From IMG/VR virus record IMGVR_UViG_3300032285_001177: a DNA stretch of 64,000 bases. One strand, given 5' to 3'. The position numbers and the translations under genes are program-made. This document shows, piece after piece, positions 9,945-63,837 of this stretch. Each line of letters starts with the position of its first letter. Within the stretch, counting starts at the first letter, position 1. The notes under the pieces were generated by a model. That model searched no databases. It was not told where the DNA came from and worked only from the letters and a program-made list of their open reading frames with translations. The DNA is from a virus.

Positions 9945-11630
9945 TTAAGCTTTCTTAAGGATCATCACGTTGTTAACGAACCAACCCATATGATAGCCTT
10001 GACGGCAGTAGTTGATCAGTTGGTCTTTAAGCTCAACGTCTTCAACTAAACCTTTTGCAAGGAACTTATCAAGCCAATATTGGCGAGGACGACAGTTAAT
10101 ATGTCCAACTCCACCTTGACCAGGTTTTGCTGCAGTAAAGATCAATGTACCACCAGATTCGATAGTGTTGAATACACCATCAACGATCTTGTCATTATGC
10201 ATTGGATCCATATGTTCTGCAACTTCAAACATGATAACGCAATCAGCTTGTCTTGTACCATCAAGTGTTAGCATATCTGCATAGGTGATAAGGTTCTTAC
10301 CATCTACACGAGGATCAATATCTAAACCTTCAGCGTTAACACCAATATCATCAAGCGAATAGACATACATGCCAGGACCACAACCAATGTCGAATACCTT
10401 TTTAGGGTTTACAACATCTTTGATCCATGATGCGATACGGTTTGCAAATGGTTTCTCTTCAGCTTCGATAGCTGGATAGTCGATCAGATCTGGATAGCGT
10501 GGATAATGCTTCTTAGCATAGTCCATGTTACTACGCCATGGATTCTCTTCGTACCAGCCTTGACCACCATGGATATTAAGTACAGCTTGGAAGTACTCTT
10601 CATACATACCAGCTACCTTCTCAAGCGAGAAGTTTCTTAATGCCCAATCACGGCAGTCTTGAGGACTAATCTTATCGATGTTCTTAAGTGCCCACACAAA
10701 CTCTTCCATAGTACGGCAACGGTAACCTGTAACACCATGGATATTGTTCTCTGTGAATGAACCCCAATCGGTAGTAATCGTTGGTGTACCAGAGAATAAG
10801 TTCTCGATCTGTACTCCACCGAACGGTTCAACATACATTGAAGCAACGAAAGATACTTTAGCTTTTGCCATTAGTTCTTTACGCATCTCTACGTCAGCAT
10901 AACCAATGAACTCAACGTGTTTTGGGATCTCTTTATAACCACATGCTTCAAGGTTATTTTGACCAGCAACCTTAAGCTTCATACCTGCACGCTCAGTTGC
11001 CTGGATAGCGATATGGATACCTTTACCTTCATAGACACGACCTAAGAATAAGCAGTAGTCTTCTTTTTCTTCAGGAGCAAACCTAAAGTCATCAGGATCA
11101 AAGTAGTTAGGGATAACAACATCATAGAAGTTTTGTTTACACATGCCAACCGCTTCAAGACCATAGTATGCATGCATGATAGCATAAGATTCAAAGATCT
11201 TAAACTTAGCCCAATGGCCACCTGCATAACCAATACCAGGTTCAACGCAGATTAGATCTGGATGTGCATCACAGATTGGTCTTGTACCAGAACCCCAGAA
11301 TGGAAGGATAAAGTCGTTCTTTTGTTTACGAAGACCTACTTCACGGATAGCGTTCTTATAGAACTCTTGATAGGCATGATCGCCTGTATTGAACTTGAAG
11401 AAGTTCTTACGCCAATCATAAGAACCATATGCGATCTCAAGGTCTTTGTTGGTTGTTACTGTAACATGTTCTGTACATGGTACATCTGATTCTTCATGAC
11501 CGTAGTGGATAACTTCATGACCACGTTCAGTCATCATCTTACCAAACTTCCACACCTTCTGTGTATAAGCGCAAGCTACATACTCTTTAGATGTTACCGT
11601 ATGAGGCAGACCTAAAATATGAAATCTCAT
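9945..11630 (-). CDS. GT-B (GT4-like) glycosyltransferase fused to a class I SAM-dependent methyltransferase
   Basis: N-terminal part: VIPNYFD, LFLGRVYEGKG, E-x7-E motif EPFGGVQIE, GTPTITTDWG, HGVTGY. C-terminal part: VFDIGCGPG, GLDID, FEVAEHM, GGTLIFTAA. Confidence 0.9.
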   Translation of the reverse strand: MRFHILGLPHTVTSKEYVACAYTQKVWKFGKMMTERGHEVIHYGHEESDVPCTEHVTVTTNKDLEIAYGSYDWRKNFFKFNTGDHAYQEFYKNAIREVGLRKQKNDFILPFWGSGTRPICDAHPDLICVEPGIGYAGGHWAKFKIFESYAIMHAYYGLEAVGMCKQNFYDVVIPNYFDPDDFRFAPEEKEDYCLFLGRVYEGKGIHIAIQATERAGMKLKVAGQNNLEACGYKEIPKHVEFIGYADVEMRKELMAKAKVSFVASMYVEPFGGVQIENLFSGTPTITTDWGSFTENNIHGVTGYRCRTMEEFVWALKNIDKISPQDCRDWALRNFSLEKVAGMYEEYFQAVLNIHGGQGWYEENPWRSNMDYAKKHYPRYPDLIDYPAIEAEEKPFANRIASWIKDVVNPKKVFDIGCGPGMYVYSLDDIGVNAEGLDIDPRVDGKNLITYADMLTLDGTRQADCVIMFEVAEHMDPMHNDKIVDGVFNTIESGGTLIFTAAKPGQGGVGHINCRPRQYWLDKFLAKGLVEDVELKDQLINYCRQGYHMGWFVNNVMILKKA

Positions 11631-13249
11631 TTTCTACTCCTAATATTATTCAAATAATTATTGATATCCCCATTTGGCATTGCATAACGATGTACAAGTT
11701 CTGGGTGCTTCATCTGTACTATCGTGTAGATAGCTTCTTCAGTACCGATTGCTCCAGCTTCTAGCGACTTATCGATATATTCAAAGTACTTATCATTAAA
11801 CTTCTGTATCTGTTCAGGCGTACCACCAAACAATGTTGCCCTACAGACGTATGATGGTTTTTCTCCAATCAACTCTGTCATCTTATTTATATCATACCCA
11901 TGGATCTCAGAATCAGTCCAGTATGGATATGATGTTAGTAAGAAGTTATCCTTCGGCATCTTAAGGAAGTTGTATGTACTGATAGGTTCTCTAACACCAA
12001 AACTATTAGAGAATCCAGAATCTATCCAATAGAAACGTTTGGATCCCCATGGACGGCCAACAGGATTCTTCTCAGCTACATAAGCCAATAACTCGTTCTT
12101 AATAAGAGTTAACGGTATGTAGTACTTAGATGATATGACTGAGTCCTTCATCCATGCAGATTGGTTTTTCCATTCATCTGTAGAGATAATATCTTGGATA
12201 GGTTTAAACCAACGATGGTTATCAAGATAATCTGTTGCAAGAGGGAAGCATTGAAGTCTGTTATCAGATGTAGCGATACTTAGTTCTTTACGTCTCTTAT
12301 ATAGGTACTCGTGATGCTCTTCATCTGCAAAGATAACGAGCGGGTTACGTACAGATAACAGCTTATCTAAACCTTTGATGTAATGCTCAACGAAGTCCCT
12401 ATCACCTCTATTAAGGTCGATCGCCATAGTAACGAGTGTGATGTCACCGGGATAATCATACTTTGGATCAGAGTCCATATAACGATAATCAAAGTATGGT
12501 AAAGTTCTATTCTTTTTAAGTTCTTCGGGGAAGAAGTCATGTGGAACCTTGCTATCGTCTGGTCGTTTACCTTCCATAGCAGAGCACTTATCACCTAGGT
12601 GTCTAGAGTATTCACCGTTAAGGTATGCACCTCTAAAGCCTAACCCACTAAATAAGCGATCGATGTTCCATTCATTATGCCACTTCTCTACACGACCTAA
12701 CATGATAAGGTCATCGCGGCGTCTTAGGTTTGGAGATCCAACCCAACAATGCCATGCTAGGTGACCATCAGTGATACGCCATGGTTTCTTATAGAAGAAC
12801 ATATCATCGATGAGTTCCTTCTCATATGAGTCGATACCTTGGAACTCAAACGTTCTCCATGATGTATCAACGCAACCGATATCACGATACTTCTCTAAGA
12901 TTTGTTTTGATTGGTTTAGGTAACCTGGTCGGATAAGTTCCCAGTCATCTTCAAGGTAGAAGATGTATTCACTGTCACAGTAGGATACCATGAAATCCAT
13001 GGCCCACCATTGTGAACGGTTACGGGGAAAACATACTACATCGCAGTAATCACCATACTCTTCAACAAGCTTCTCGAATACTCCATCGACAGCAGAGTCA
13101 TCTACGATCACCATCTTGGTGATATAGTCTTGTGTGTCATGGAATGATTGAAGAGTCTTAGATAAGACGTCTAGTCTATTACAGGATAGTACGAAGGTTG
13201 TTGTGTCTGAATCTGGTTGATCAACGGTGTGGATCTTCAATTGTGCCAT
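11627..13249 (-). CDS. Two-domain glycosyltransferase: GT-A (GT2-like) plus HtrL/YibB(WlaTC)-like domain
   Basis: N-terminal FVLSCNRLDVLSKTLQSF, IVDDS, YIFYLEDDW (DxD-type). C-terminal ITLVTMAIDLNR, FYWIDSG, ATLFGG, TEEAIY resemble HtrL/YibB proteins. ATGA overlap with the downstream GT gene. Confidence 0.8.
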   Translation of the reverse strand: MAQLKIHTVDQPDSDTTTFVLSCNRLDVLSKTLQSFHDTQDYITKMVIVDDSAVDGVFEKLVEEYGDYCDVVCFPRNRSQWWAMDFMVSYCDSEYIFYLEDDWELIRPGYLNQSKQILEKYRDIGCVDTSWRTFEFQGIDSYEKELIDDMFFYKKPWRITDGHLAWHCWVGSPNLRRRDDLIMLGRVEKWHNEWNIDRLFSGLGFRGAYLNGEYSRHLGDKCSAMEGKRPDDSKVPHDFFPEELKKNRTLPYFDYRYMDSDPKYDYPGDITLVTMAIDLNRGDRDFVEHYIKGLDKLLSVRNPLVIFADEEHHEYLYKRRKELSIATSDNRLQCFPLATDYLDNHRWFKPIQDIISTDEWKNQSAWMKDSVISSKYYIPLTLIKNELLAYVAEKNPVGRPWGSKRFYWIDSGFSNSFGVREPISTYNFLKMPKDNFLLTSYPYWTDSEIHGYDINKMTELIGEKPSYVCRATLFGGTPEQIQKFNDKYFEYIDKSLEAGAIGTEEAIYTIVQMKHPELVHRYAMPNGDINNYLNNIRSRK

Positions 13250-13272
13250 AAATGTTCCTCAGTTATGATATA

Positions 13273-13301
13273 ATTATACTATAGAGAGTGTTTAATGTAA
13301 A
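13273..13301 (-). promoter_or_regulatory. Sigma70-type promoter for the glycosyltransferase pair
   Basis: Minus strand TTTACA (13301-13296), 17-nt spacer, TATAAT (13278-13273); GAGG RBS before ATG 13249. Confidence 0.75.
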
Positions 13302-13303
13302 AT

Positions 13304-13311
13304 TATTTATG
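13304..13311 (-). promoter_or_regulatory. Possible late promoter variant CATAAATA upstream of the GT pair
   Basis: 7/8 match to TATAAATA, overlapping the stop of 13307..13492. Confidence 0.4.
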
Positions 13312-13501: not shown

Positions 13502-15537
<2,036 letters not shown>

Positions 15538-15546: not shown

Positions 15547-16246
15547 CGTATGCCCATTGAGATTCCATGTTTCTTGATGATGTACTATTTGTCCATGAAT
15601 AAGCAACTGTTGCTGTACCGGCTGTGCCTTGGCTATTATCATAGTAGTATGTTTGATCTAAATTTGGTGTTGAAAATGGGCCTGCTGTAGGATTTGCTGG
15701 TGTACCAGTTGCTATTAGCGCAGTTGGAGCTGTCGTACCAAATGAAAGATGGAAGAAGTTAAACCCACCTGCAGACATCGCTAGCGAGTTTGTTCTGCTA
15801 GTACCGGTAGCTATCGTTGTTGTACTTGACGATACATACGATAGTGTGGTCCTACCATCTAAAGTATATACCAGAAATTCTGTAGTACCATTTGCAGAAG
15901 CTCCTGATGTTACCACGCTAACAGTTACACCAGTCGTACCTGTTGTTACGTTTGCAAAGATCGCAGCATTACCACCTGATGTAGTACTACTAGGATTAGA
16001 GTATGCTATGGTTGCAGAGACACCATTAATAGTTGCGGATGTAAATGATCTTGGAGTAATCGATGTAACAGGAGTCCTAACAAAAATTATTACCCATCTA
16101 GTAGATGTTGCTGTTCCTATGTTTACACTTGCAGTCTTAGTCGCAGCAGTGCTTGCTGCCATCTGGAAAGGTCCTTGCGATGTGAGCGTGGCTATTGTGT
16201 TACTGTTACTCGAAAACGAGCCTATCAATGCTTGCATCATACTCAT
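15542..16246 (-). CDS. Thr/Ser-rich beta-sheet virion protein, likely fibre-associated
   Basis: Start reassigned to ATG 16246 (MSMMQALIG), a TAATG overlap with the stop of the 1876-aa gene. Confidence 0.7.
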   Translation of the reverse strand: MSMMQALIGSFSSNSNTIATLTSQGPFQMAASTAATKTASVNIGTATSTRWVIIFVRTPVTSITPRSFTSATINGVSATIAYSNPSSTTSGGNAAIFANVTTGTTGVTVSVVTSGASANGTTEFLVYTLDGRTTLSYVSSSTTTIATGTSRTNSLAMSAGGFNFFHLSFGTTAPTALIATGTPANPTAGPFSTPNLDQTYYYDNSQGTAGTATVAYSWTNSTSSRNMESQWAYV

Positions 16247-19200
16247 TATGTTAGACCTGCACCTGAACAATGGAATGTTGGAGTTCCACCACCGACTACA
16301 CATAAGTATGTCGCCATACCATACTGAGCTAGTGTCCTGTTACCAGTCGATGCTGTACCAGCTAGTCTGAATGTTACTGATGTACCTGCAGTAATCGTTT
16401 GTGCTGACGCAGAGTTGTTAACGATGGTGACCATATCACCAGCATTGAATACTGAGGCATTGATCGTCACACCGCCTGTAGAGATGTAGATAGTCTTACC
16501 TGCATCAGAAGCCGCGGCAATGTATGCTCCACCCTGCGTATTGATCGGTGCGGCACGCACATCTCCTTTAGAATCTGAGATAATACCAGATGCATTAATT
16601 ACACCAGTAGCACCAGTCGCGCCTGTACCCACAGTAATATTTGATGTGATAATCATGCCTGACGCATTGATTGAACCTGTTGCACCGGCCGAAGCACCAC
16701 CTACGGCTACGGCAGCATTTAATACTACAACACCAGATGCACCAATGGTTGGGGTAGTATTGATATTGATACCAGTGCCAGATATATTACCTGAAGCATT
16801 GATAGAACCTGTTGCACCTGTAGCACCAGTTCCTACTGCTAAGAGTACTGGATTAGTTCCTCCAACACCTGTAGCACCGCTTGCCCCTTGTACACCTGTA
16901 GCACCATTAATGCCTGATGCACCACTAGCACCAGATGCGCCACTAATACCAGTAGCTCCACTTGCTCCTGAGGCTCCACTTGCGCCTGATGCACCATTAA
17001 CTGCAGCTGGTCCAGTTGATCCTGTTGCACCATTGATAGCTACACCAGTTGCTCCTGATGCACCGTTGATTGCTGCTGGTCCTGTTGCACCTATCGGTCC
17101 TGTTGAACCAGTTGCGCCTGATGCTAGTAGTACACCAGCTAAGTATGCGGTATTAAAGTAAGCAGTAGTTGCAGACATCGAACCAGTAGATCCAATATAT
17201 CCTGTTGCACCTGTAGTACCTACTGCAAGGTTAGGTGATTGGATTTGACCTGATGTATTGATCGTACCAGTTGCACCAGTAGCACCAGTACCGATAGCAA
17301 GAGCTTGTGCACCCATACCTTGTGATGAGTTAATACTATTGAAAGCTGATATTGTACCCGTAGCACCTACTGATACACCACCTGCAGCAATTGCACCATT
17401 AACTAATACTGCTCCAGATGCACCGAGACCTGCATTTCCAATGCTAATACCACCAGCTAACATGTTACCAAGAGCAGTGATAGAACCCGATGCACTAACA
17501 GTTCCAGTTGCTCCAGGACTTGATGTTCCTGCACTAATACCACCTGTTATAGCTAAAGTATTTCCATCAATTCTACCTAATGCATAGATTGATCCAGTTG
17601 CACCTGAGGCTCCTATATTACCTATCTGTAGAGATTGGGCAAACATTGCTAATCCCGCTTTAATCTCTCCGGACGCTGTGATAGATCCAGTCGCACCTGT
17701 CGCACCAGTACCTACAGTTAATGTACCTGTACCTATATTAGCATTTGCAATAATAGATCCAGTTGAACCTAAGATGCCAGTGGCTCCAAGTCCAATTTGT
17801 AAGTTTTGAGTAACAGTGTTTACAGCATTAACCGCAGTTGCACCAAGCGTTGGAGTATTTACGGATAGTGAAGCAGTAATTGCACCAGTTGCACCTGTCG
17901 CTCCAGTACCAATTGCTAAGTTAGGAGCAGTGATGGTATTAGATGCCATAACTGTACCAGTCGCACCTGTAGCACCAGTACCAACAGTTAATGTACCAGA
18001 TGCTATATTAGTTGTAGCACTGATATTACCTGAAGTGTTGATAGAACCGGTTGCACCTGTTGCACCGGTACCAACTTCGATTGTTTGTACAGCGATGTTA
18101 ACAACGTTAGCAGCGGTCGCACCTAATGTTGGAGCATTAACAGATAGTGAAGCATTGATAACTCCGGTTGCGCCTGTCGCGCCTGTACCTATCGCTAAGT
18201 TTGGAGCAGATACTGTATTAGTTGTAATGATTGTACCAGTTGAACCAACTGTTGCACCACCAATAGCTAAGGTACTAGATGCTAATGCTGTAGCAGCTAT
18301 TTGTCCAGAAGCGTTAATAGAACCTGTAGCTCCTGTGGCACCAGTACCAATTTGAATTGTTTGAGCTGTAAGGTTTACGGTGTTAGCTGCAGTTGCACCC
18401 AATGTAGGAGCGTTAACAGATAATGAAGCATTGATAACACCTGTAGCACCAGTTGCTCCTGTACCGATAGCTAAGTTAGGAGCTGAGATAGTATTTGATG
18501 TGATAACAGTACCTGTAGCACCAGTTGCACCAGTTCCTACTGTTATTGTACCGTGAGAAACGTTATTTGCAAATACACCTACTAGGGCATTAATGGATCC
18601 TGTAGCACCTGTTGCACCTGTACCAACTTCAATCGTTTGTGCTGCAAGGTTTACGGTGTTAACACCAGTCGCTCCATGTGTAGGAGCATTAACAGCTACT
18701 GAAGCATTGATTGTACCTGTAGCTCCTGTGGCACCTGTGCCAACTTCAATCGTTTGTATAGCAAGGTTAGTAGCAGTTATTGTACCGCTAGCACCGGTTG
18801 CACCAGTACTAAATGATGCAGCATTAATAGATCCAGTTGCAATGATAGAGCCTGTTGCTCCAGCAGTGCCTGCACCAACAACTGCATTCTTAAGAACACC
18901 CACTGAAGTTAAGCTTGAGTTAACAACGTTAGTTCCTAATGTAGTTGAACTAAGTACTGCTACGTTATTGATATAGTATGTTAATGATGCGCCACCAAGA
19001 TTCCAGTTATCCGAAGCGTTCCAATAACCAGTGTTTGTACCAGCGGTTGTGGCTGTCGCAGCCCAACTTAATGTCTTGTCTGTTGCACCTTTAAGTGTAA
19101 CACCACCACCAGCTGCTGTAACATCTGTTACCCCGCCGATTGTTAATGTAACACCCGCAGTTGGTCCACCAGTACCAGTTAACGCTGCACTTAATGTGAT

Positions 19201-21876
19201 TTGAGTTGCGCTATCAACAGATTGAACTGTTGTACCACCAGCAACAGTGATTGTACCAGCACCAGTTAATGCAGTAAGTGCAGATCCTGGAATAATACCA
19301 GTTACGCTTGACATGTTTGTGATGATACCAGATCCAGCAGTTACCGTACCTGTAGGGCTTACTGCTGTTACAGAACCTAACTCGATGTTCTTATCATCAA
19401 CAGTTAGAGTGTTTGAGTTTACTGTAGTTGTAAGACCGTTAACAGTTAAGTTACCAGTGATCGTTGTATTACCACCGACGTTTAGGTCACCTGAAGCATT
19501 GATAGATCCTGTAGCACCAGTTGCACCTGTACCAACTCTAAATGATTGTATTACGCCGTCAGTGCCAACTAATGTATTAGTAGTAACACCTGTTGAACCA
19601 ACTGATAATGCACTAAATGCATTTATGGTCGCAGCTGTTGCACCGATAGATGCTGCGGTTACAGAACCTGATGTAACGATTGAACCTGTGGCACCAGTTG
19701 CGCCAGTACCAACTTGAATTGTTTGAGCTGTAAGGTTTACTGTATTAACACCTGTTGCACCGTGTGTAGGAGCATTAACAGCTGTTGATGCATTGATTGT
19801 TCCTGTAGCACCTGTAGCACCAGTACCGACCGTAAGTGTACCAAACGCGGCGTTATTTGTGATTACACCAGTAATAGCACTAATAGAACCTGTTGCTCCC
19901 GTAGCACCTGTGCCGAGGATAATATTAGGTGAAGTGATCCATCCGCCAAACGCAGCACTAGTTGCACCAATAGATTGCGCTGTTAGAGGACCAGAAGCAT
20001 TGATAGAACCGGTTGCACCTGTTGCACCTGTACCTACTTCAATAGTTTGTAATGCTGAATTAGTTGCAACTAATGTATTAGTAGTAACACCGGTTGAACC
20101 AACAGTCAATGCACTGAATGTATTGATTGTTGCTGCAGTTGCACCAATGGATGCAGCTGTAATTACACCAGATGCATTGATTGTGCCTGTCGCGCCTGTT
20201 GCTCCCGTACCAACTTGTAATGTTTGCACACTTCCATTAGTAGTAACTAATGTATTTGTTGTAACACCTGTTGCGCCAATTGTTGCTGAAGCTAACGTGT
20301 TTGTTGTTACACCAGTTGTTCCAATTGTTGCTGCAGATAATGTATTAGTAGTAACACCAGTTGCACCAACTGTTGCAGCAGATAATGTATTAGTAGTAAC
20401 ACCAGTTGCACCAACTGTTGCAGCAGATAATGTATTTGTTGTGATGCCTGTTGCACCAGCGGTACCGATATTTAAAGTATTAGTTGTGATACCAGATGCA
20501 CCGATTGTTTGCGCGCTAAACGTATTAATAGTTGCTGCAGTTGCACCAATAGATGCAGCTGTAACTGATGTTGTAGTTGTTATAGGACCAATAGTACTAA
20601 TCGCACCAGTAGAACCAGTTGCACCTAATGTAGTACCTACATTTAATGCATTGGGGATATTAATGTTACCGTTTGCATCTATTCCAAGTCTTATAGCTAT
20701 AGGAGCCGCACCAGTAGCACCGTATCTATCTCTTATTGCAAATTGTCGCGCGCCTGTTGCACCTGTTGCATACATATCAAAATATGCACCGTTTGTAGTA
20801 AGTGTTGAATCCCATTCTTGTAGTTCAACAGATGGGTTTCCACCCACACGGGCGACTTTAACTGAAGCAGAACCGTCTATTAAGTTAAAACTTCTGTTTG
20901 CTGGTAAACCAGTTGTAGTTCCTTGTACCCAAACGTTTGCGATATTTACGTCAGAGATCTTATTGCCAGCCAGTATATGACCATCAGTTGAATATACTCT
21001 ATTGTATAATCCAACGTTTAGGTCACCAGAAGCATTGATAGATCCAGTAGCACCAGTTGCTCCAGTGCCTACTCTTAATCCACCATTGATCCATGTTGAA
21101 TTATCTGTGCCAATCGTCATCGCATCGTATGTATTGCCATTGATTACGAAGTGGATTGGTTTTAATGCATATGTACCAATAGCAAGATCAGATGACTGAG
21201 ATGCAACGTATACCGTGTTAGGTTGGATAAATGCGCCGCTAGCACCAGTTGCGCCTGATGCACCAGTATTGAACAGCGATGAGTTCATACCAAACTCACC
21301 GTAGTAGGTTGAGTTGGTTGCTTGGTCGTTTGATACTACGAAGTTAGTAGAGGCACTTTGACCCGCAAAAGTATTTTGTAGGAGTAGTTGGTTATAGCTA
21401 TCTACAGATGATGACCATGAACCCATGATGTTGCCATCTGTATAGTTCAATGTACCGTATGAGTATGCTCCTTGTGCAGATGATGCACCTATAGAACCAT
21501 TAGCTATATAGTATGTACCTGAAAAAGCGCCAGAAGCATTAACAGAACCTGTTGCACCAACACCTGTTGCACCGACAGCAAGAGTTCCAGTAAATGATGT
21601 ATTTGTTGTATTAAGGTTTGAAGATATAGCACCTGTAGCACCTGAAGCGCCTGTCGCACCAGCTCCAACATGCAAACTACCTACAAGTTGTACAGATCCG
21701 GTTGCACCAGTAGAACCAACTAGTGGTCCTACTTGGAAGGTGTAGAAACCTCCCGAAGTTGGGACTTGACCGGTTGCTCCATAGAAGCCTGTCGCTCCTG
21801 AAGCCCCTTGAGGACCTGTTGTACCAATTGCACCAGCAAAACCACTTGATAATATATTTCTGATATCAGTTGTCAT
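16246..21876 (-). CDS. Very long tail-fibre-like protein with non-collagen [VI]GTGATGATG[ST]I repeats
   Basis: 1876 aa; fibre segment GNLTVNGLTTTVNSNTLTVDDKNIELG...GGGVTLKGATDKT; C-terminal ASDAGK...FNAGDMVTIVN...GNRTLAQYGMAT domain. Confidence 0.8.
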   Translation of the reverse strand: MTTDIRNILSSGFAGAIGTTGPQGASGATGFYGATGQVPTSGGFYTFQVGPLVGSTGATGSVQLVGSLHVGAGATGASGATGAISSNLNTTNTSFTGTLAVGATGVGATGSVNASGAFSGTYYIANGSIGASSAQGAYSYGTLNYTDGNIMGSWSSSVDSYNQLLLQNTFAGQSASTNFVVSNDQATNSTYYGEFGMNSSLFNTGASGATGASGAFIQPNTVYVASQSSDLAIGTYALKPIHFVINGNTYDAMTIGTDNSTWINGGLRVGTGATGATGSINASGDLNVGLYNRVYSTDGHILAGNKISDVNIANVWVQGTTTGLPANRSFNLIDGSASVKVARVGGNPSVELQEWDSTLTTNGAYFDMYATGATGARQFAIRDRYGATGAAPIAIRLGIDANGNINIPNALNVGTTLGATGSTGAISTIGPITTTTSVTAASIGATAATINTFSAQTIGASGITTNTLNIGTAGATGITTNTLSAATVGATGVTTNTLSAATVGATGVTTNTLSAATIGTTGVTTNTLASATIGATGVTTNTLVTTNGSVQTLQVGTGATGATGTINASGVITAASIGATAATINTFSALTVGSTGVTTNTLVATNSALQTIEVGTGATGATGSINASGPLTAQSIGATSAAFGGWITSPNIILGTGATGATGSISAITGVITNNAAFGTLTVGTGATGATGTINASTAVNAPTHGATGVNTVNLTAQTIQVGTGATGATGSIVTSGSVTAASIGATAATINAFSALSVGSTGVTTNTLVGTDGVIQSFRVGTGATGATGSINASGDLNVGGNTTITGNLTVNGLTTTVNSNTLTVDDKNIELGSVTAVSPTGTVTAGSGIITNMSSVTGIIPGSALTALTGAGTITVAGGTTVQSVDSATQITLSAALTGTGGPTAGVTLTIGGVTDVTAAGGGVTLKGATDKTLSWAATATTAGTNTGYWNASDNWNLGGASLTYYINNVAVLSSTTLGTNVVNSSLTSVGVLKNAVVGAGTAGATGSIIATGSINAASFSTGATGASGTITATNLAIQTIEVGTGATGATGTINASVAVNAPTHGATGVNTVNLAAQTIEVGTGATGATGSINALVGVFANNVSHGTITVGTGATGATGTVITSNTISAPNLAIGTGATGATGVINASLSVNAPTLGATAANTVNLTAQTIQIGTGATGATGSINASGQIAATALASSTLAIGGATVGSTGTIITTNTVSAPNLAIGTGATGATGVINASLSVNAPTLGATAANVVNIAVQTIEVGTGATGATGSINTSGNISATTNIASGTLTVGTGATGATGTVMASNTITAPNLAIGTGATGATGAITASLSVNTPTLGATAVNAVNTVTQNLQIGLGATGILGSTGSIIANANIGTGTLTVGTGATGATGSITASGEIKAGLAMFAQSLQIGNIGASGATGSIYALGRIDGNTLAITGGISAGTSSPGATGTVSASGSITALGNMLAGGISIGNAGLGASGAVLVNGAIAAGGVSVGATGTISAFNSINSSQGMGAQALAIGTGATGATGTINTSGQIQSPNLAVGTTGATGYIGSTGSMSATTAYFNTAYLAGVLLASGATGSTGPIGATGPAAINGASGATGVAINGATGSTGPAAVNGASGASGASGASGATGISGASGASGASGINGATGVQGASGATGVGGTNPVLLAVGTGATGATGSINASGNISGTGININTTPTIGASGVVVLNAAVAVGGASAGATGSINASGMIITSNITVGTGATGATGVINASGIISDSKGDVRAAPINTQGGAYIAAASDAGKTIYISTGGVTINASVFNAGDMVTIVNNSASAQTITAGTSVTFRLAGTASTGNRTLAQYGMATYLCVVGGGTPTFHCSGAGLT
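20333..20436. repeat. Exact 45-bp tandem repeat, about 2.3 copies
   Basis: Unit gcagataatgtattagtagtaacaccagttgcaccaactgttgca starts at 20333 and 20378, partial at 20423; encodes AATVGATGVTTNTLS. Confidence 0.9.
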
Positions 21877-27900: not shown

Positions 27901-27996
27901 TAATAAGTCACCTGCTACATCGTTAGGTAAGTAACCTGTTATATTAAGCGCGCTGGCGCTGGTATAGTTTGATGCGGAGTCTCTTATGGCTGCCAT
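24964..27996 (-). CDS. Large multi-domain virion/fibre protein with probable beta-helix segment
   Basis: 1010 aa, Thr/Ser/Gly rich; AGDLLLAIV...GWT N-terminal module; FTNCS/CNFN/CSFTNN repeats; WVANNTYKVGD motif. Confidence 0.65.
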   Translation of the reverse strand: MAAIRDSASNYTSASALNITGYLPNDVAGDLLLAIVVVRTTTATVTVSATGWTSLAQSFVSSGHTTAILYKVSTGADADPVFSWATTSAVAGVHIIALQDVNTSSPFNGTGGAGTGYRIVTSTTTAAVGFMPQLTTTVDNSLVLYALTTNSAIVPMIMEGPVVYEYGADYASNSSALSYTVQRTAGQTPGTVGYSQTTAATFVGHAIVLGISPSITGATGTAVIPAYCAGDSSKYISPINGTTAYNGQAAFAVLGGATGATGASGIRPFGISLAGSNLESGAVAASTDVGLNSYHSMGTMTHGTIVTKQYKGAYLAVGGATGGINIGYRNILVHSKPTTPATYQNTDGIGRDITKGIGFGIASGATGAYTNTTNTYISGNWKIWHVHGSNTPFDTATHVPMVVHPGATGPAAGATGSKIIGSTGLLDTTNVGSFGFFTSAVGTPTPSWQFGSMWALDTTVIAGGNQYFPVDTKGMAKAAAVGKERLSVIQQGIDQALVLQPLQFGNGGTDPIYLNLDSSAIEFPKIYDVAKKQVFYNSVPNAAGITYYAGTGDTIIHSNATIISQDKYTWGFSPNTSASATYTFNNTVINGAGIVTLNANVPLTSVAFTNCSEIPVRPASGATGPIMTLCNFNAAAGNTCYGATGTLGASGAAVIINGTSQTDLQNALNRLVSCSFTNNTNAAGALKVNYTGGATGITLTNSDKTFSGNTYDLNLIGATGTSFIWTNTSSTANASTYTTVPGNSIVVQNTTTFGQITFDSYVQSDYGSAVYRLFYKQLNTSGSSLKFGTNDAVLVKSLSTDLSADGSFEVKGTVTSSSVTFNYDYIYNTQGAWVANNTYKVGDQFSNRVAAATTWYEVTTAYTSGSTFGTTDTSKCSVISGPSVILVALGRINADYFNVTATLAPFTTTIIAAINTQELNYSNVLSATGTVGTVTGAFPTWSAVVTGLTSTGEMYVGQSISATSGIGALYGGLPTSCIITSIPSLTSITYTVTGTSATTPVGGSITNIIG

Positions 27997-44840: not shown

Positions 44841-44845
44841 ATTTA

Positions 44846-49520: not shown

Positions 49521-50399
49521 TTAAATCCTATACCAAATATCGCCAGATACGCCAGTTGCTCCAGGAGCATTAGTGGAAATATACTTTGTTCCTTGTGAAT
49601 TTTGTCCAACACCAGCTACTGGTGCCGTTTGAACGTATTCTTGTGTTGCTATAGTTCCATTTGCATTTGGTGCAGTAAGAGTCTTAGTTGTACCTGATCC
49701 AATGTTAGATACTTGGAAGTTTAGAACTTTTGTTGTATCAACATCATCGGTGATAGCAAACTTATTATCTCTAAATGTTTGTTGACCTGTCCATAAATTA
49801 TTTCCAGTTTGTGTACCTAAACCTAAACTTAATGAACCACCCAATGATACAGAGTTACCGTCGATGCTGATAGAACTATTTGCTAACTTAGTGTTAGCGA
49901 TTGAACCTGAAAGCATTGCGTTTGTAACTGTACCAGTATCGCCAGTAGTTACAACTGTACCTGACACATCAGGCAACGCAATAGTTCTGTCTGCAGTAGG
50001 ATCATTAACTGTTAATACAGTCTCATACGTATTATCTGTTGGACCTTCAAACGTAACGTTTTGTGATGGACCTACATAAACTCCTGCATTAACTAAGTTA
50101 GCTGTGATAACATTAGCAGAGAAGTTGCCAGATGAACGGGTAACTACACTGTTACCAGATTGATCTGAGCTAGATGTGTTTAATCCATCTAATAAGTCAG
50201 CATCTAATCCTGAACCAGAACCATCTACATTCTTAACTTTTGCTAGTACACCTGCATCAGAATAGTCTGTTGTTAATACACGTGTTTGTATATCAGCGTT
50301 TAAGTTATAGAAGTTAGTGTCAATCTCTGCATTTGTAAGTGCAGCGTTTTTAACTCCTGTTGCGCCAGTGGCACCTAATCTATATAGTATACTTGCCAT
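49521..50399 (-). CDS. Tail-fibre-like protein
   Basis: LTNAEIDTNFYNLN, VDGSGSGLDADLLDG, FEGPTDNTYET...PTADRTIALPD, ends SGDIWY. Confidence 0.72.
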   Translation of the reverse strand: MASILYRLGATGATGVKNAALTNAEIDTNFYNLNADIQTRVLTTDYSDAGVLAKVKNVDGSGSGLDADLLDGLNTSSSDQSGNSVVTRSSGNFSANVITANLVNAGVYVGPSQNVTFEGPTDNTYETVLTVNDPTADRTIALPDVSGTVVTTGDTGTVTNAMLSGSIANTKLANSSISIDGNSVSLGGSLSLGLGTQTGNNLWTGQQTFRDNKFAITDDVDTTKVLNFQVSNIGSGTTKTLTAPNANGTIATQEYVQTAPVAGVGQNSQGTKYISTNAPGATGVSGDIWYRI

Positions 50400-53500: not shown

Positions 53501-55954
53501 AACCGCAGTAGTTGCTGCAGCTAAACTCTTTGTAGTGTTAGTAGTATAGTTAATAGTAGAGAGATCAATATCAGAACGTCTTGGTCTAAAGTCAATACAA
53601 TCTCTTAGCGTATATGTAACTCCAGATGCAGGATCTGTAAATGATGGGATACTACCATAAGGGATACTACCATAAGAATCAACTGATAGATAGCCATAAC
53701 CAAGACCACCATCATGTTTATAGTTTCTATATACTACTAACAAGTAGTTTGTATCTGTTGGTGGTGAACCGCTTAATACGATAGTGCCATGATCATACTT
53801 CTCAGCACGTTGGCCGTTATCAAGAGTATATCTTGATGTCACATCAGTATGTGATACTCCACCCCATGCAAGTACACCTGTACCAGCATTAATAGTAACT
53901 GCGCTTGGGACAGTTGAACCAGTATTATAAACTCCATAGATATTTTCAATATCAGAAGCTCCTAATGTATCTGAACCGCCAGTTGTAGTATTTAAACCAC
54001 CAGTAGATCCAGAACCTAAGATAGCGATATTATAACCTGATAAAGATTTTGTTTTTTCTATTTGATGTCTAGCATTAATAGTAACAGTAATGTCTAAAGT
54101 ACCAGCAAAAGTATTATCGCCTATATCAAAGTGAATAGTTTGACCTGCACTATCACTAGCTGGAGTATCAACAGTTACTATCCTTGATTCTGCTCCGTGC
54201 CAATTAACTACTTCACCTACAGCGTATCCGCTACTAGTAGTTGATGTAATAACAAAATGATAGTACGTTGCCTTTTCTAGATCTGTTAAAGTACCGCTTC
54301 CTTGGAATCTTTCAAGTGGATTACTGTTTGTAATACTTGCTAAACCGCCACCTCCAGAACCAAATGTAACTGAGTATACACGTTGGAATGTGTATTCTGT
54401 TTGCGATACTGGTGGAGCACTTGTATCCCTAATAGTTTTTATGAATTGATTAGGCATTGGGAATACTAAACCTGGGCTATCTGCGCCAGATAAGTACATT
54501 GCACCAGATGCACCAACAACAGCATCACCTGTAGGACCAGCTACTCCACCGGCTTTACTTAGTGTTGTAATATTAGCACCAGCAAGAACAGATGAACCAG
54601 ATCTAACAACTATAGACTCAGTGTTATATAAGTATTTTCCAGAATTAATTACTATGTCATACAAGTACATCTTATAGACAGCAGTAATGCCTGTTGCTCC
54701 AGCTGTGCCGATTACGCCTGAATCATAGCTTAAGAACCTAACTCGAGCTGTACCAATTCTTGTTGATGTTCCAGATACGCTTCCGTGTGGAACGTTATGC
54801 AACTCTACAGCAGTATAGCTAGTATGATCTGTAGTATTAGTTTTAAATGAACCCTTTAATGTATCAACTAATGCATAGTTACCATATGTTAAGTCAGTTG
54901 AAACTAAAGATGCAGTATCAGTTTCTCTTGCGCGATCTAATGTTAAGAATGTTTGAGATATAGTTTCATATTCAAAGCCCTTAACGTATGCTTTACCTGG
55001 ATCCAATGATACTGTAAATGCACCTGATGCACCAGCAACATCATCTGTAATATGGATAGGCCATGCTTTAACTGTGTAGTCACCTGATTCATCAGATGTT
55101 CTACGAGCCATCTCTTTACCAATCTCAGAGTATACTGTCGTTGCTTTATTTGTAACCAATGCACCGTTCTCTACACGGGCAATCTCAATGAAGTTTGTAG
55201 ATGTGGCACCTGTTGCACCTGTGATGATGCTTCTGATCTCTAATGTTAGGTATGCTTTGTATCTGTCTGCACCAGGAGCTGCATAGTTTGGTGATTCCTG
55301 AGCTAAGTCAAATAATGATTCACCATCAGCAGAGTCTGTAGTAGTGATCTCTTCGTTTAATACAAGACCGATGCTGTGTGAAGATGTGTTATCATACTTA
55401 GCAACTGGGATACTTTGTGCTTCAAGGTAGATAAACTTACCATCTACAAAGAATACACCAGAATCAATAGAGAAGTTCATTGCTGAGTTAAATGCACCTG
55501 AACTTTGGATGGTTGCATAGTATGCAGTGCCAGAAGTATAGATCGTTTCTGCAAGATCAAATGCTGTGCCTGAAGTGATCTTAACTAATAGTGTTTTTGG
55601 GTTACCGTCTGAATCGATATCAGCTACAGACTTAACTACTGCTTGTGTTCCTGTGGTATTACCAATGATAGTCTTACCAACAAACTTTGTGATATCAACC
55701 GTAGATCCAAGATAAGATGAATTGAGTTTAATTGAAAGGAGAGTGTTCTCAAAGAGTCTATTACCACCTAACACCAATGATCCATTGACAAATATGTTCT
55801 TACCAAACTTATTGATTTGGTCTGATAGTTCTGTCTGGAGCTGTGTTAGTTCACGGGCTTGAACAGCATATCCTGGTTTAAATAAGATTCGATGATAGTT
55901 CTTGGTCTCATCGAAGTCATCATAGTAAGGACTGATATTGAAGTTAATTGCCAT
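50588..55954 (-). CDS. VrlC-like (DUF4815-type) large virion structural protein
   Basis: NISPYYDDFD...RILFKPGYAVQARELTQLQ, APGADRYK, ARRTSDESGDY, DCIDFRP, RRYTMRDIGRLEKRI, GSLFKSQNASTW, PRLRDLRVIAL. Confidence 0.88.
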   Translation of the reverse strand: MAINFNISPYYDDFDETKNYHRILFKPGYAVQARELTQLQTELSDQINKFGKNIFVNGSLVLGGNRLFENTLLSIKLNSSYLGSTVDITKFVGKTIIGNTTGTQAVVKSVADIDSDGNPKTLLVKITSGTAFDLAETIYTSGTAYYATIQSSGAFNSAMNFSIDSGVFFVDGKFIYLEAQSIPVAKYDNTSSHSIGLVLNEEITTTDSADGESLFDLAQESPNYAAPGADRYKAYLTLEIRSIITGATGATSTNFIEIARVENGALVTNKATTVYSEIGKEMARRTSDESGDYTVKAWPIHITDDVAGASGAFTVSLDPGKAYVKGFEYETISQTFLTLDRARETDTASLVSTDLTYGNYALVDTLKGSFKTNTTDHTSYTAVELHNVPHGSVSGTSTRIGTARVRFLSYDSGVIGTAGATGITAVYKMYLYDIVINSGKYLYNTESIVVRSGSSVLAGANITTLSKAGGVAGPTGDAVVGASGAMYLSGADSPGLVFPMPNQFIKTIRDTSAPPVSQTEYTFQRVYSVTFGSGGGGLASITNSNPLERFQGSGTLTDLEKATYYHFVITSTTSSGYAVGEVVNWHGAESRIVTVDTPASDSAGQTIHFDIGDNTFAGTLDITVTINARHQIEKTKSLSGYNIAILGSGSTGGLNTTTGGSDTLGASDIENIYGVYNTGSTVPSAVTINAGTGVLAWGGVSHTDVTSRYTLDNGQRAEKYDHGTIVLSGSPPTDTNYLLVVYRNYKHDGGLGYGYLSVDSYGSIPYGSIPSFTDPASGVTYTLRDCIDFRPRRSDIDLSTINYTTNTTKSLAAATTAVEYEQIPSPVSNMISTYQYYLGRIDKIIATADKSFTIKKGNPSLYPQPPIDESNGMTIFAVIIPPYTANVRDISVKYFDNRRYTMRDIGRLEKRIANLEYYTQLSLLEKQAKDTSVADANTKEKFKNGFATDPFTSADIFNASTWATRRWGWWNAWFNGSNTWNVSSTNYNANSLADASNIDFYAAIDPLNQELRAPFTVEFHQFDVVTDALTNTERNGDLITLTYTETPAIVQPLASQYINVNPFNVIRFIGTIRLEPSFDTWIDTTYLPDTNLVVDSVVPGVMEQDVRIDNNATRFHSEAGGHPWHVASTTVTFGTNVLGTSTATLGTTVVDVQMVPFIRASKVLGIGKLFKPKAKLYPFVENTAITSYVKPLTVLEISTLVGTGFDDRQGVYEGLTFHSLAAGGVATGVTANVAIFSQATTADPTKYLLTISGESGSVASYTGKYVVGSKSGTSALITAVHTYSLGADLVPDEFGNLGFEFDIPANTFKTGERTIRLIDNSANNVQLEESIGEAKYTAIGEIQTKQRTILTTRLLQNTKTTTEVGYYDPIAESFVIYENDFPLGLHLSSVDIYFKSKSNTVPVELQIRNNVNGYPESVPTIPFSSVQLKASDVSVSENGSVATKFKFDNPIHLAPGDYSIVLLANTQEYQVFVANIGDTIPSTYAVNPGGKIDKQPYIGSLFKSQNASTWEPDQNKDLKFTLNRCVFSSSTGYAEFDIQDPDALRNYHTLQANVSSILPTGTSITWSARTYYGGTSYDSDWVPLNMNQDINYDTIRAIDAAAGHANNTLRLRAEMSLDPTVATKYEVSPTIDAATVAAITALNDINNNASTEAGITVGGSATAKYISKVVNLASGFEASNICVTVDINKPTGTDVKVYYRTLPAEKNTPITNEQWVLMNLESAVANSTSSFDFKEHRYFPPGAIVNSIPQDNPISPRFNSFQIKIVMLSSYAANTPRLRDLRVIALDS

Positions 55955-59499: not shown

Positions 59500-60996
59500 T
59501 TATCCTGTAAACGGCGCTGATACCGGTGGATTAAATTGTTGATCTGGTATTGAGTAATCTTGACCAGCATATGGATCTACAGAAGATCTGCCGCCTGAGT
59601 CTGTAAGGATTACATTATCGTTAGTTATAGTCTTATTTATAGTAGTAAATGTGGCTTTAGATATCCATTGCTCTAATTCTTGTATAGCAGTGGTAGCTGG
59701 GTTAAACTCATTTTGGATCTGATACTCAGCAAATAAAGCAGTTCCTGCAGGATGTAAGTATGACTTAATAAGTGACTTAAAGTTATCAAGCTTCTCATCT
59801 ACGGTAATCAAGTATGAATACTTTTGATACCTATAGCTGTCTTGAATATACATGTCATCATCAAGGAACCCATCATTTGTATTATAATGGCCTTGATACT
59901 TAGCTACTGCACCTATGTTAAACTTAATTAACACATAGTTTGGGTGTGTACCTTGTTCATTGATAGATTGTTGATAGAACTGTTGTAGGTATGTAGCAGC
60001 ATAAGTTGGATCAGTATATTCAAGCACTACATAGTCTGGTGTTAAGACATAACCATAATCTGCATAACTGTCTATCTTAGTATCATTTGCTATAGAGTAT
60101 TGTGAAGTAAATGCTCCAGTTGCTCCTTCTCTTCGGCCGATACTGATGTTAGAGTTTCCTACTGTAGTGCCACTTGTTTGTAGTAAGAAGAAGTCGCTAT
60201 CATATCCATATCCAAAGTCAAGCGTAACAAAGTTAACTAACCCACCAACCAACGGATTCGCTGGATCTGGATTGATCTTAGTTACCTTAAGTCTTTGTGT
60301 TATGAACTTGCCTTGAGATACTGTTGTACCAGTAATAATTTGACCTACTTTAAATCCTGTTCCGGGTAACTCAACAGAATATGATACAGTTGTAGGTAAT
60401 ATGGTACCAGCAACAGAACCAAACTCTATACTATAACCTACTTCGATCTTTCCATAATAGTACCGATCGATGAATATTTCCCATACATTATCTTCACGGT
60501 AAACTACCTTGTTAACGAATACTTTGATCCGTTGGTTTGCACCTAAGATAGTGATACGATTTCCTGGTAATGTATTTGCATCTCCGTTTGTAATGTTAAC
60601 AAAGATCGACATGTCTTGCTGCCATTTACCATCAGATGCTTTAAGTACTTGATCCCATGGATAAGATACAGAAGCCGTCTTACCATATAATAGTTTAAAT
60701 AAAAACTTATATGAAGCTTCTCCGCCTTTTGCTAGTAATACCTCTTTAACTTTTCTAAGGAATAATCTTTCGTTAATATTAGTGTATGCGCCACCAAAGA
60801 TATCAAGTTCATTCTTAAAGTACTGTATGAACGAATCAAGGGTTTTATCTATATCCCTTAACTCAGTTATATTGCGTTGTTCTGTTTGATCTAAGTATTC
60901 ATAGTATGCTTCTATGAATGCAACGAATAGAGGGTAGTCTTCCCTTGCAAATTCTGGGATCTGTTTAGATACTACTGATTTTAAATCTATGGACAT
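59500..60996 (-). CDS. Baseplate wedge initiator, gp7-like
   Basis: QIPEFAREDYPLFVAFIEAYYEYL, KGGEASYKFLFKLLYG, LKASDGKW, IQDSYRYQKYSY, LHPAG; between gp6 and gp8. Confidence 0.8.
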   Translation of the reverse strand: MSIDLKSVVSKQIPEFAREDYPLFVAFIEAYYEYLDQTEQRNITELRDIDKTLDSFIQYFKNELDIFGGAYTNINERLFLRKVKEVLLAKGGEASYKFLFKLLYGKTASVSYPWDQVLKASDGKWQQDMSIFVNITNGDANTLPGNRITILGANQRIKVFVNKVVYREDNVWEIFIDRYYYGKIEVGYSIEFGSVAGTILPTTVSYSVELPGTGFKVGQIITGTTVSQGKFITQRLKVTKINPDPANPLVGGLVNFVTLDFGYGYDSDFFLLQTSGTTVGNSNISIGRREGATGAFTSQYSIANDTKIDSYADYGYVLTPDYVVLEYTDPTYAATYLQQFYQQSINEQGTHPNYVLIKFNIGAVAKYQGHYNTNDGFLDDDMYIQDSYRYQKYSYLITVDEKLDNFKSLIKSYLHPAGTALFAEYQIQNEFNPATTAIQELEQWISKATFTTINKTITNDNVILTDSGGRSSVDPYAGQDYSIPDQQFNPPVSAPFTG

Positions 60997-62840: not shown

Positions 62841-63232
62841 TATCGTGATCTCGTAAGAATTAAATCAACCTGCTGTGGTCGAGTTGTGTTTATTATAGTA
62901 AAGTATATCGACACATAGACTTCATAGTTATCAGGTGATACTGTTACCACTACATCGTTAAGCTTAACTCTTGGTTCAAAGTTAACGATCGTATCTGTGA
63001 TAGCTCTCTTGAGCATGATATCTAGCATAGGCGTTGCGTTCTCAAACAACAAGCCTCTTATCTGAGAACCTATCTCAGAATGGAATGGTCTCTCATAGTT
63101 TTGTGTAAGCACAAGGTTCCTTACTGAAGCCTTAATAGCTTGATCATCATACTTAAGGACAACATCATGCGTGACAGGATGCATACCAAAGTTTAGGTCG
63201 ATATCAGAGAATGTTCTTGTGCTGCGTGCCAT
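62840..63232 (-). CDS. gp25: Baseplate wedge subunit
   Basis: FSDIDLNF, AIKASVRNLVLT..YERPF, NFEPRV. Confidence 0.95.
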   Translation of the reverse strand: MARSTRTFSDIDLNFGMHPVTHDVVLKYDDQAIKASVRNLVLTQNYERPFHSEIGSQIRGLLFENATPMLDIMLKRAITDTIVNFEPRVKLNDVVVTVSPDNYEVYVSIYFTIINTTRPQQVDLILTRSR

Positions 63233-63837
63233 TATACTCTAAACCAGAGGTCTCCGTTAACATACCCAACGGTTGATGAAGGAGCTACTGTACTAATAGT
63301 TCCAACTAATTTTGGTCCTGTTGCACCAGGATTACTTGCCAATGTTATACGCCAATCAGCTGCAGTTGCTGTACCATTGACAAAGTCAAAGTTTATAATC
63401 ATCGTAGTAGTAACGTATGATGTTATAGCACCTTCCATAAAATTGGTTGGTGTAGCATTACTATAAACTCTAACACGGCCACCAACTGGATATGCAGTTT
63501 GCGATGTATCTGTATTAACAGTAAAAGTTTTAGAACCAGTACTTATAGTTTGTGATGTCGCAGAAGTTAAGACAGTGTATCCAATACCTGTTGCACCTAC
63601 AACACCTGGTAAACCAGTAGATCCTGTTAAACCTGTACTTCCGGTTGGACCTTGTAAACCGGTTGAACCTGTTAAACCAGTTGAACCGACTAAACCCGTA
63701 CTTCCGGTCGGTCCTGTTAAACCTGTACTTCCTATTGGACCTTGTAAACCGGTAGAACCCACTGGTCCTGTAGAACCAGTCGCTCCGATTGCTCCAGCTA
63801 ATGCTGCTGAATTGATTGAACTTAAATTAATAGCCAT
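63232..63837 (-). CDS. Short collagen-like protein (GST-rich) between gp5.4 and gp25
   Basis: G-X-Y tract dominated by GSTG, then [17 protein letters not shown] module, ends NGDLWF. Confidence 0.75.

Follow-up and report, generated by a model that had tools for sequence, protein, structure and literature searches.

Why should the same tetrapeptide, G-A-T/S-G (hereafter GA[TS]G), recur in the collagen-like fibres and in the globular tail proteins of one phage, alongside genes for sugar-transferring enzymes? The question is raised by the IMG/VR virus record IMGVR_UViG_3300032285_001177, a stretch of 64,000 nucleotides (hereafter the window, i.e. the whole DNA analysed) that represents the structural module, from neck to baseplate, of an uncultured T4-like aquatic myovirus. 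Its minus strand carries every sizeable open reading frame (ORF) and all window features located below. An earlier note on this DNA had proposed that GA[TS]G is the acceptor sequon of glycosyltransferases (GTs) encoded in the window and that it was spread over exposed loops to build a glycan coat. Enrichment of the motif, its location in loops and its co-occurrence with one of the enzymes, GT1 (phrog_3408), speak for this proposal, which is weakened by the absence of such a spread in other GT1 phages and by GAT-type collagens in phages that lack GT1. Tentatively, and at somewhat less than an even chance, we favour the reading that GT1 would O-glycosylate GA[TS]G on the fibres, the tag being carried also in loops of globular tail proteins.

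Phage-encoded virion glycosylation and glycosylated collagen-like surface proteins are known already; the GATG peptide and the link between GT1 and collagen type appear to be new. Our literature search found no paper on the GATG peptide, on a sequon in T4-like phages or on a link between a GT family and a collagen type, in agreement with the earlier note, which knew of no described sequon of this kind in T4-like phages.

Enrichment of GA[TS]G outside collagen-like tracts

GA[TS]G was found in exactly 15 ORFs of the window (at least 15 had been announced) and in about 430 copies, the majority of them inside collagen-like (Gly-X-Y)n, or (GXY)n, tracts. The isolated contexts quoted in the earlier note, i.e. 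RREGATGAFT, IITGATGATST, IQGATGVAG and LAGATGVQQ, are all present. Copies were considered as lying outside a tract when they fell outside runs of at least four GXY triplets, and the expectation for each protein was taken from 1000 composition shuffles. On this basis the window holds 100 outside-tract copies vs 5.1 expected. Five proteins each exceeded all 1000 of their composition shuffles: the 830-aa virion structural protein (22431..24923, phrog_1645), in which all four GATG are isolated (4 vs 0.26 expected); the 1010-aa protein (24964..27996), with 8 vs 0.32; the 968-aa virion structural protein (29139..32045, phrog_5838), with 4 vs 0.23, all of them GATG; the 1788-aa baseplate protein (50588..55954; DUF4815, PF16075, gp7/VrlC-like), with 3 of its four GA[TS]G vs 0.18; and a 292-aa protein (49521..50399), with 3 vs 0.08. 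A 1876-aa fibre recognised by reading its sequence (16246..21876) has 90 GA[TS]G, 64 of them outside GXY tracts vs 1.9 expected.

When the 1876-aa protein was left out, GATG was the most frequent and the most over-represented tetrapeptide of the pooled outside-tract residues (12,330 residues; 37 copies vs 1.4 from composition), and the 11 remaining permutations of G, A, T and G had 2-5 copies each. Local shuffles in blocks of 8-40 residues gave a mean of about 3 GATG and a maximum of 11. The enrichment outside collagen for which shuffling had been proposed as a check was thus found per protein, in the pool and against local blocks; compositional bias is ruled out by the per-protein shuffles, the local block shuffles and the permutation control. 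The 37 isolated GATG are encoded by 22 different 12-mers with codon frequencies like those of the genome, so that the conserved unit is the peptide, as already argued from its varying codons, and a DNA motif is ruled out. Thr and Ser occur at 37:6 outside tracts (GATG vs GASG) and at 167:158 inside them (p 1.2e-5).

Inside tracts, the motif is carried by a 277-aa collagen-like protein (14698..15531; PF01391, 66 bits; 20 GA[TS]G), a 249-aa protein with a short collagen-like stub (28390..29139; 8), a 321-aa collagen-like protein (32049..33014; 13), four tandem genes for proline-poor collagen-like fibres of 1584, 1220, 760 and 478 aa (34025..46282; 103, 50, 87 and 29) and a 201-aa collagen-like protein of GST/GLT type (63232..63837; 3). 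The main triplets of the window collagens are GAS, GAT and GST, with Ala mostly at X, Thr, Ser or Gln frequent at Y and proline rare. Uninterrupted Gly-X-Y runs of up to 249 residues and the PF01391 match identify collagen repeats; the triple helix itself is predicted.

The 1876-aa protein is a non-collagen fibre of about 30 repeat units, and its orthologues keep the motif, both in L230 (80 % identical) and in the IMG/VR contig G006 (58 %), the latter being the closest near-complete relative found (terminase 95 %, portal 87 %). Relatives without GATG also have giant fibres of more than 1800 aa (L235:14044-18664 and L236:16920-22418), made of repeats such as LNFAGAATTLTIGATSGTANIRNAN and IGAGTGTLTINNPTVVGTQ; they are similar in style to the 1876-aa fibre, yet share neither BLAST similarity nor GATG with it.

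Gain of isolated copies in variable loops

The 968-aa protein is an orthologue of S-PM2 p175 (40-43 % identity to p175 and its kin), which aligns over its full length without any of the four GATG. In 79 IMG/VR orthologues (39-59 % identity) variable S/T/G/A/N loops occupy these four positions; no position has the motif in more than one of the other sequences, and at three of them the window protein has extra residues. The 1010-aa protein, for which no Pfam or PHROG family match was obtained, has 13 GA[TS]G in total, close to the dozen first estimated. All 13 sites are kept in three close relatives (87-93 % identity) taken from a protein collection, and a sister phage, P0006 (a 169-kb ENA/JGI contig with a syntenic fibre module; 49 % identity in this protein), has 17 sites, partly common and partly its own. 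Among more distant homologues (35-52 % identity), 26 are without the motif and two have 1-2 copies; when GATG-less homologues are compared, most window sites prove to be 3-13-residue insertions. With this protein, a profile search of IMG/VR returned only 11 relatives, all distant and GATG-less.

In the gp7-like 1788-aa protein, one site is common with the G006 orthologue and the three others of the window are insertions, while G006 has a private site of its own. The 292-aa protein has a 7-residue insertion containing GATGATG in an N-terminal motif, absent from its paralogue (46641-47711) and from the G006 homologue, and one further GATG at its C-terminus. For the 830-aa protein, the orthologues in L230 and L233 have 5 and 0 copies. 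Some isolated sites are substitutions rather than insertions. Read from these alignments, the isolated GATG copies are lineage-specific additions in variable loops, mostly by small insertions.

Two AlphaFold models were used to locate the sites. The first covers residues 709-968 of the 968-aa protein (67-sequence alignment, predicted local distance difference test, pLDDT, 74) and is a beta sandwich with weak jelly-roll matches in Foldseek, its four GATG lying in coil or hairpin turns. The second, built from 32 sequences, is of the 1010-aa protein; its core, modelled with confidence up to about residue 750, is rich in beta structure, 13 of 13 motifs are in coil, and the low-confidence segments of the core (218-220, 257-263, 366-377, 410-415 and 638-649) coincide with motif insertions, five clusters of sites falling there. 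The motifs are therefore not buried, as had been anticipated: all 17 modelled sites are in coil or turns, a location that is weak evidence because Gly-rich tetrapeptides favour loops anyway. Foldseek also gave weak matches of the 1010-aa model to GH87 alpha-1,3-glucanase beta-helices, phage capsule depolymerases and tailspikes, and the predicted fold suggests that this protein may be a glycan-degrading tailspike.

The enzyme cassette

Two adjacent genes make up the cassette. The 561-aa product of the first (9945..11630) combines a GT-B glycosyltransferase, GT1 (residues 1-363), with a class I S-adenosylmethionine (SAM) methyltransferase (about residues 406-500). GT1 matched PF00534 (61.5 bits, cut-off 26.4) and phrog_3408 (651 bits over residues 1-363), the methyltransferase part matched PF13489 (35.3 bits), and the best solved relative of GT1 is 7FG9, a cyanobacterial alpha-1,2-glucosyltransferase (glucosylsucrose synthase; E 9e-23). 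The second gene (11627..13249), whose stop overlaps the GT1 start, encodes a 540-aa fusion, GT2-HtrL, of a GT2 domain (residues 20-144; PF00535, 28.1 bits, cut-off 23.3) and an HtrL_YibB-like domain (269-519; PF09612, 29.9 bits, cut-off 24.1). The score of 38.8 bits with the TIGR02192 equivalog (cut-off 264.9) indicates that the latter is a distant domain relative of HtrL/YibB in a different protein. A sequence search of solved structures with GT2-HtrL gave no relative, and an NCBIfam search gave only names far below threshold. Of the three GT domains and the methyltransferase first announced, GT1, GT2 and the methyltransferase are recovered by profile, and HtrL as a third GT is a prediction only.

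The cassette is flanked by gp13 and the fibre genes in the window and in L234. Among relatives, the methyltransferase is either fused as in the window or encoded by an ORF of its own between the two cassette genes. Modified-base synthase and nucleotide-metabolism genes, with which DNA glycosyltransferases cluster, were not found next to it: in the window it adjoins neck and fibre genes, in relatives fibre or metabolic genes. Upstream of the GT2 start, a sigma70-like promoter (TTTACA-N17-TATAAT) and a near-late box, CATAAATA, were read at 13273..13311; transcription of the cassette may precede that of the fibre genes. Between a 399-aa gene and GT2 there is a small ORF (13308-13492, about 60 codons), which is followed by this promoter. 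In some relatives a variable island is found directly upstream of GT2-HtrL (L043:2988-8234 and L022:1404-4787), its genes encoding a fatty-acid desaturase, TctA, DctP, a sulfotransferase and a mannose-6-phosphate isomerase/cytidylyltransferase-like protein.

Association of GT1 with GAT-type collagen

In cultured phages, GT1 orthologues were found in S-CAM7 and ACG-2014f (72-75 %), together with a 31 % relative in S-CBWM1. GT1 adjoins collagen genes in these three phages and in G036: the two genes just upstream of it in S-CAM7 encode collagen-like proteins with 65 and 22 GA[TS]G, and the upstream gene of S-CBWM1 encodes a GAT/GPT collagen tail fibre. A PiuC-like 2-oxoglutarate-Fe(II) oxygenase, beside or one gene from GT1 and near the collagen genes, was seen in S-CAM7 (L001, 19814-20410) and ACG-2014f (18400-18993); from its position, it could be a second fibre-modifying enzyme, e.g. 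a hydroxylase. GT2-HtrL has no homologue in cultured cyanophages. Its relatives were found at 48 IMG/VR loci (45-87 % identity), mostly with GT1 beside it, and those with fibre genes in reach have collagen of GAT/GAS type.

The coding counts of GATGATG were determined for genomes or contigs with and without GT1, the window and the L230/L234 phage being counted among the carriers; the GT1 searches also recovered their positive controls. Among carriers, the counts were 29 in S-CAM7, 10 in ACG-2014f, 29 in G006, 29 in G007, 31 in G009, 28 in G011, 12 in G012, 42 in G013, 53 in G014, 9 in G015, 26 in G036 and 7 in G043; G008 and G010 have none, but they do have GAT/GST/GAS collagen. The count is 0 in the GT1-negative phages S-PM2, S-RSM4 and Syn1 and in 37 of the 39 GT1-negative IMG/VR contigs with orthologues of window fibre proteins, the exceptions being G003 (10) and G017 (3). 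Overall, GATGATG is present in 14 of 16 GT1 carriers (at least 7 copies each) vs 2 of 42 non-carriers (Fisher p 1.3e-9), records being taken as independent and their shared ancestry ignored; among records at least 90 % complete, it is present in 6 of 7 carriers vs 1 of 11 non-carriers (p 0.0025).

Carriers span marine cyanomyoviruses, the window clade and jumbo phages of 230-390 kb, as well as a 177-kb phage (GT1 50 % identity) and a 179-kb phage whose structural proteins are 23-35 % identical. In several of them (G043, G008 and the jumbo contigs G009 and G013) a distance of 15-50 kb or more separates GT1 from the collagen genes. The association holds also in genomes with GT1 only (S-CAM7, ACG-2014f, G036 and G043); GT1 is a better correlate than the GT pair, because GT2-HtrL is absent from the cultured cyanophages in which GT1 and GAT collagen occur together, and from G036 and G043. 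The pair as the unit is ruled out by these same genomes, which have GT1 and GAT collagen without GT2-HtrL. GT1-less relatives have other collagen types (GLQ/GVQ/GNQ; GTQ/GLQ/GSQ; GTT/GSQ/GIQ; GTS/GFS/GIS) or none, and carry other glycosyltransferases. Beside the 968-aa orthologues of L134, L137, L138, L114, L150 and L180, each phage shows its own triplet set, in collagens of up to about 1000 residues with almost no proline.

Phages in which the motif has spread to loops

Among the GT1 carriers compared, isolated copies were observed in a single clade. The sister phage P0006, in which GT2-HtrL and GT1 adjoin gp13, has 49 outside-tract copies vs 3.2 expected, including 7, 11 and 5 in its orthologues of the 968-, 1010- and 830-aa proteins. 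In G006, which served as a stand-in for a whole-genome control including non-structural proteins, the spread is weaker (25 vs 2.0 expected) and almost all of it is in the tail module. These two phages and that of the window all have GT2-HtrL, a methyltransferase ORF or domain, and GT1. In 18 cassette-less relatives with the same fibre-to-gp13 synteny there is no GA[TS] collagen, and GATG occurs at chance level. L233 has GAS/GAT collagen and motif-free globular orthologues, and this contig ends at the cassette position.

G006 has no orthologues of the 968-, 1010- and 830-aa proteins and has about 11 kb inserted between gp13 and GT1 (G006:C1:112682-123860), which shows that the fibre module is highly plastic within the clade.

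Proposed mechanism and alternative explanations

In the mechanism that we propose, the cytoplasmic GT-B enzyme GT1 would O-glycosylate Thr, less often Ser, in the G-A-T/S-G of tail-fibre proteins soon after their synthesis. The glycan would then be lengthened by the GT2 and HtrL-like domains, and a sugar would be methylated by the methyltransferase fused to GT1. The main targets would be the collagen-like fibres of proline-poor GA(T/S) type; the same tetrapeptide, installed in the clade of the window phage mostly by small insertions, also stands in exposed loops of globular proteins of fibre and baseplate, and these would thereby come under the glycan coat as well. We infer that protein is what the enzymes act on at all, that the Thr of GATG is the acceptor and that the steps follow in this order; the purpose would be stabilisation of the triple helix, shielding or adhesion. 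Thr O-glycosylation by GT1, with extension and methylation, appears the most economical mechanism, and precedents exist in mycobacteriophage virions, BclA-type collagens and multi-domain chlorovirus enzymes. One exact tetrapeptide, its repeated gain, over a deep divergence, in loops of many unrelated tail proteins, and one GT family that in distant phages tracks it in collagen form favour a selected tag recognised in trans over composition, a DNA signal or a generic turn. A link of GT1 to the fibres is likely, and a sequon that covers the isolated copies is plausible; we give somewhat better odds to action of GT1 on GA(T/S) collagen fibres than to a role of isolated GATG as acceptors also. Animal viruses gain and lose N-glycan sequons. 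A comparable idea for the window clade, namely that GATG is a minimal portable acceptor sequon and that the glycan coat evolves by gain and loss of the tag in surface loops, is rather doubtful.

Several points weigh against O-glycosylation of GA[TS]G by GT1. The GT1 carriers S-CAM7 (6 vs 4.9 expected) and ACG-2014f (0 vs 5.1) have no excess outside collagen, and jumbo contigs with the full cassette have little or no spread in the fibre regions sampled; the cassette is therefore not sufficient for the spread. In the window itself, sheath, tube and portal have no GA[TS]G. Co-occurrence in related genomes, suggested as a check for the GT pair, holds for GT1 and fails for the pair as the tracking unit; the shared ancestry ignored in the counts and the loop preference of Gly-rich peptides, both mentioned above, belong here too. 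The density of GA[TS]G in ORFs just upstream of the cassette did not differ from that upstream of gp13 in cassette-less relatives, a null result attributed to the varying gene order around the cassette, with a metabolic-gene island in several relatives, and whole-contig counts were used in its place. GAT-rich collagen without GT1 does occur, namely in the Roseobacter podophage CRP-114, in which no glycosyltransferase is annotated, and in G003, and these rule out that GAT collagen always denotes a phage glycosyltransferase. Although rated 100 % complete, G003 (IMGVR_UViG_3300032315_001715, 452,799 bp) greatly exceeds its relatives in size and carries collagen genes at its two ends; it may be a concatemer or chimera, and its value as a GT1-negative counter-example would then be affected. 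The closest solved relative of GT1 has a small molecule, sucrose, as its substrate (PMC9909042), similar folds are proposed DNA glycosyltransferases in T4-like rhizobiophages (PMC13326640), and glycosylation of the virion is here a prediction from sequence.

In a purely structural explanation, GAT/GAS would simply be the collagen triplet of this lineage and GATG a favoured tight turn in beta-rich trimeric fibres, the cassette remodelling the host surface (O-chain) or another non-virion target and the correlation reflecting shared descent of a host-recognition module. GATG-less relatives build a giant fibre from a G/A/T-rich turn unit, I-G-A-T-S-G-T-x-x-I-x-N, so that part of the 1876-aa signal is structural; phages without GT1 also commonly have GAT triplets in their collagens, and other glycosyltransferases are common in relatives without any collagen. 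The cassette is flanked by metabolic genes instead of fibres in several relatives, and its promoter is of the host sigma70-like type without an exact TATAAATA late box. Moreover, GTs of host-recognition clusters in aquatic T4-like phages (pelagimyophages and cyanomyophages), which as in the window lie amid tail-fibre and collagen-repeat genes, have been read as host O-chain modifiers, i.e. as modifying host lipopolysaccharide (LPS) (PMC7029224), and the literature reads such enzymes as host O-chain or DNA modifiers (PMC7029224, PMC12801897, PMC13326640); unlike the present case, PMC7029224 reports no peptide motif and no link to collagen type. A generic turn, however, poorly explains one exact tetrapeptide with 37 copies when its permutations have 2-5, insertions in loops where 79 and 26 homologues use other residues, or a link between GT1 and GAT collagen in divergent phages with the genes 15-50 kb apart. 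We regard this structural explanation as rather unlikely.

The isolated copies could, instead, be neutral by-products at the DNA level, GAT-coding repeat pieces from the collagen genes or the 1876-aa fibre having been copied by slippage or microhomology-mediated recombination and kept where loops tolerate them. Most copies are indeed in-frame insertions of 3-13 residues, some being mini-tracts, and the Thr:Ser ratio in the 1876-aa fibre repeats (59:5) equals the bias of the isolated copies (37:6), so that this fibre is a possible donor and DNA-level copying from it stays conceivable. However, S-CAM7, ACG-2014f and the jumbo contigs have as many GAT repeats or more and no spread; GID, GIQ and GVQ, abundant collagen triplets of the window phage, are very rare outside tracts; the isolated sites vary in codon use as much as the genome does on average; and sites are kept at 87-93 % identity and partly at 49 %, some of them being substitutions. 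Such copying is improbable as the explanation. Very improbable is a different reader of GATG, such as a fibre-assembly chaperone, a cross-linking or other modifying enzyme, or a host receptor or lectin, with the glycosyltransferases unrelated to the motif: the window does encode two glycine-rich proteins resembling phrog_863 'tail fiber assembly' (13502-14701 and 33049-34023), and the motif is confined to fibre and baseplate-periphery proteins, but no candidate reader co-varies with it, GT1 is the sole gene found here to track it, and the genes between giant fibre and cassette are not the same in the window as in the sister phage, in which the motif has spread too.

Comparison with known glycosylation systems

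BclA of the Bacillus exosporium and BclA3 of C. difficile, with SgtA, carry Thr O-glycans with methylated or deoxy sugars that form a surface nap; PMC9614988 mentions such proteins. Like the window collagens, BclA is built of Gly-X-Thr repeats; its repeats are bacterial and are GPT, with Pro at X, whereas the window has Ala at X and rare proline, so that the GPT pattern is absent from its collagens, and the peptide also occurs singly in globular domains. To our knowledge no sequon is known in BclA outside the collagen region. Among eukaryotic viruses, A064R of chlorovirus PBCV-1 is a GT-GT-methyltransferase enzyme. The glycosylation machinery of giant viruses has been reviewed (PMC9614988, PMC4691112). 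As in the window, chlorovirus and giant-virus sets include multi-domain enzymes with several GT domains and a sugar methyltransferase, and the likeness is one of domain content: chlorovirus enzymes act on structural proteins at non-canonical sites, in viruses of eukaryotes, and place N-linked glycans on the capsid protein.

Closer in kind is the virion O-glycosylation of Che8-type mycobacteriophages by phage glycosyltransferases (Freeman et al. 2023, Cell Host Microbe, PMC10527164, as cited in PMC12801897 and PMC12619734). Glycosyltransferase genes lie in or beside structural genes there, and are linked to structural genes in the window and in L234; the mycobacteriophage enzymes modify the virion proteins of their own phage in the cytoplasm, the role that we propose for those of the window. 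In mycobacteriophages it is the C-termini of capsid and tail-tube subunits that accept the glycans, which were demonstrated by mass spectrometry, whereas the window is predicted to use an internal tetrapeptide of fibre and baseplate proteins. Acceptors of the C-terminal type are not apparent in it, the tube-like and sheath-like proteins being without the motif and the capsid gene lying beyond the window. The host of the window phage also differs from those of mycobacteriophages in being Gram-negative or cyanobacterial.

Annotation of the glycosyltransferases in the fibre region of aquatic T4-like phages routinely makes them modifiers of the host surface or of DNA. If one family does glycosylate the fibres of its own phage at this tag, virion glycosylation would reach from mycobacteriophages to abundant aquatic myoviruses. 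It would also explain a possible stabilisation of proline-poor phage collagens, and the tag, being short and genetically portable, could serve glyco-engineering together with its cognate enzymes. If GATG is moreover the minimal portable sequon considered above, it would be the first one defined for a phage-encoded protein-glycosylation system, and a GT class of these phages would be reassigned from 'host LPS modification' to virion modification. The cultured Synechococcus phage S-CAM7, with its GT1 orthologue next to two GAT-collagen genes (collagen-like gp014 and gp015), makes the hypothesis directly testable.

Layout of the window

Set out against the coordinates, tail tube, portal and sheath-like genes are followed by those for the large terminase (5475-7079), gp15 (7061-7792), the T4 neck protein (7792-8868) and the gp13-like adaptor (8870-9883). 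The adaptor gene is followed by the two enzyme genes, then by fibre genes over about 33 kb and finally by the baseplate genes, which encode the DUF4815/gp7-like protein, a gp8-like protein and wedge subunits, one of them a 498-aa protein (59500..60996; PF23786) with a single GATG. At the DNA level, the only match to a cultured relative is the GT1 gene (Synechococcus phage S-CAM7, 75 %). Exact TATAAATA late boxes number 13 in the window vs about 6 expected; every one of them is on the coding strand, and most immediately precede structural genes (e.g. at 3401, 5463, 9908, 15539, 24952, 44833, 55981 and 63842), a placement consistent with T4-type late promoters.

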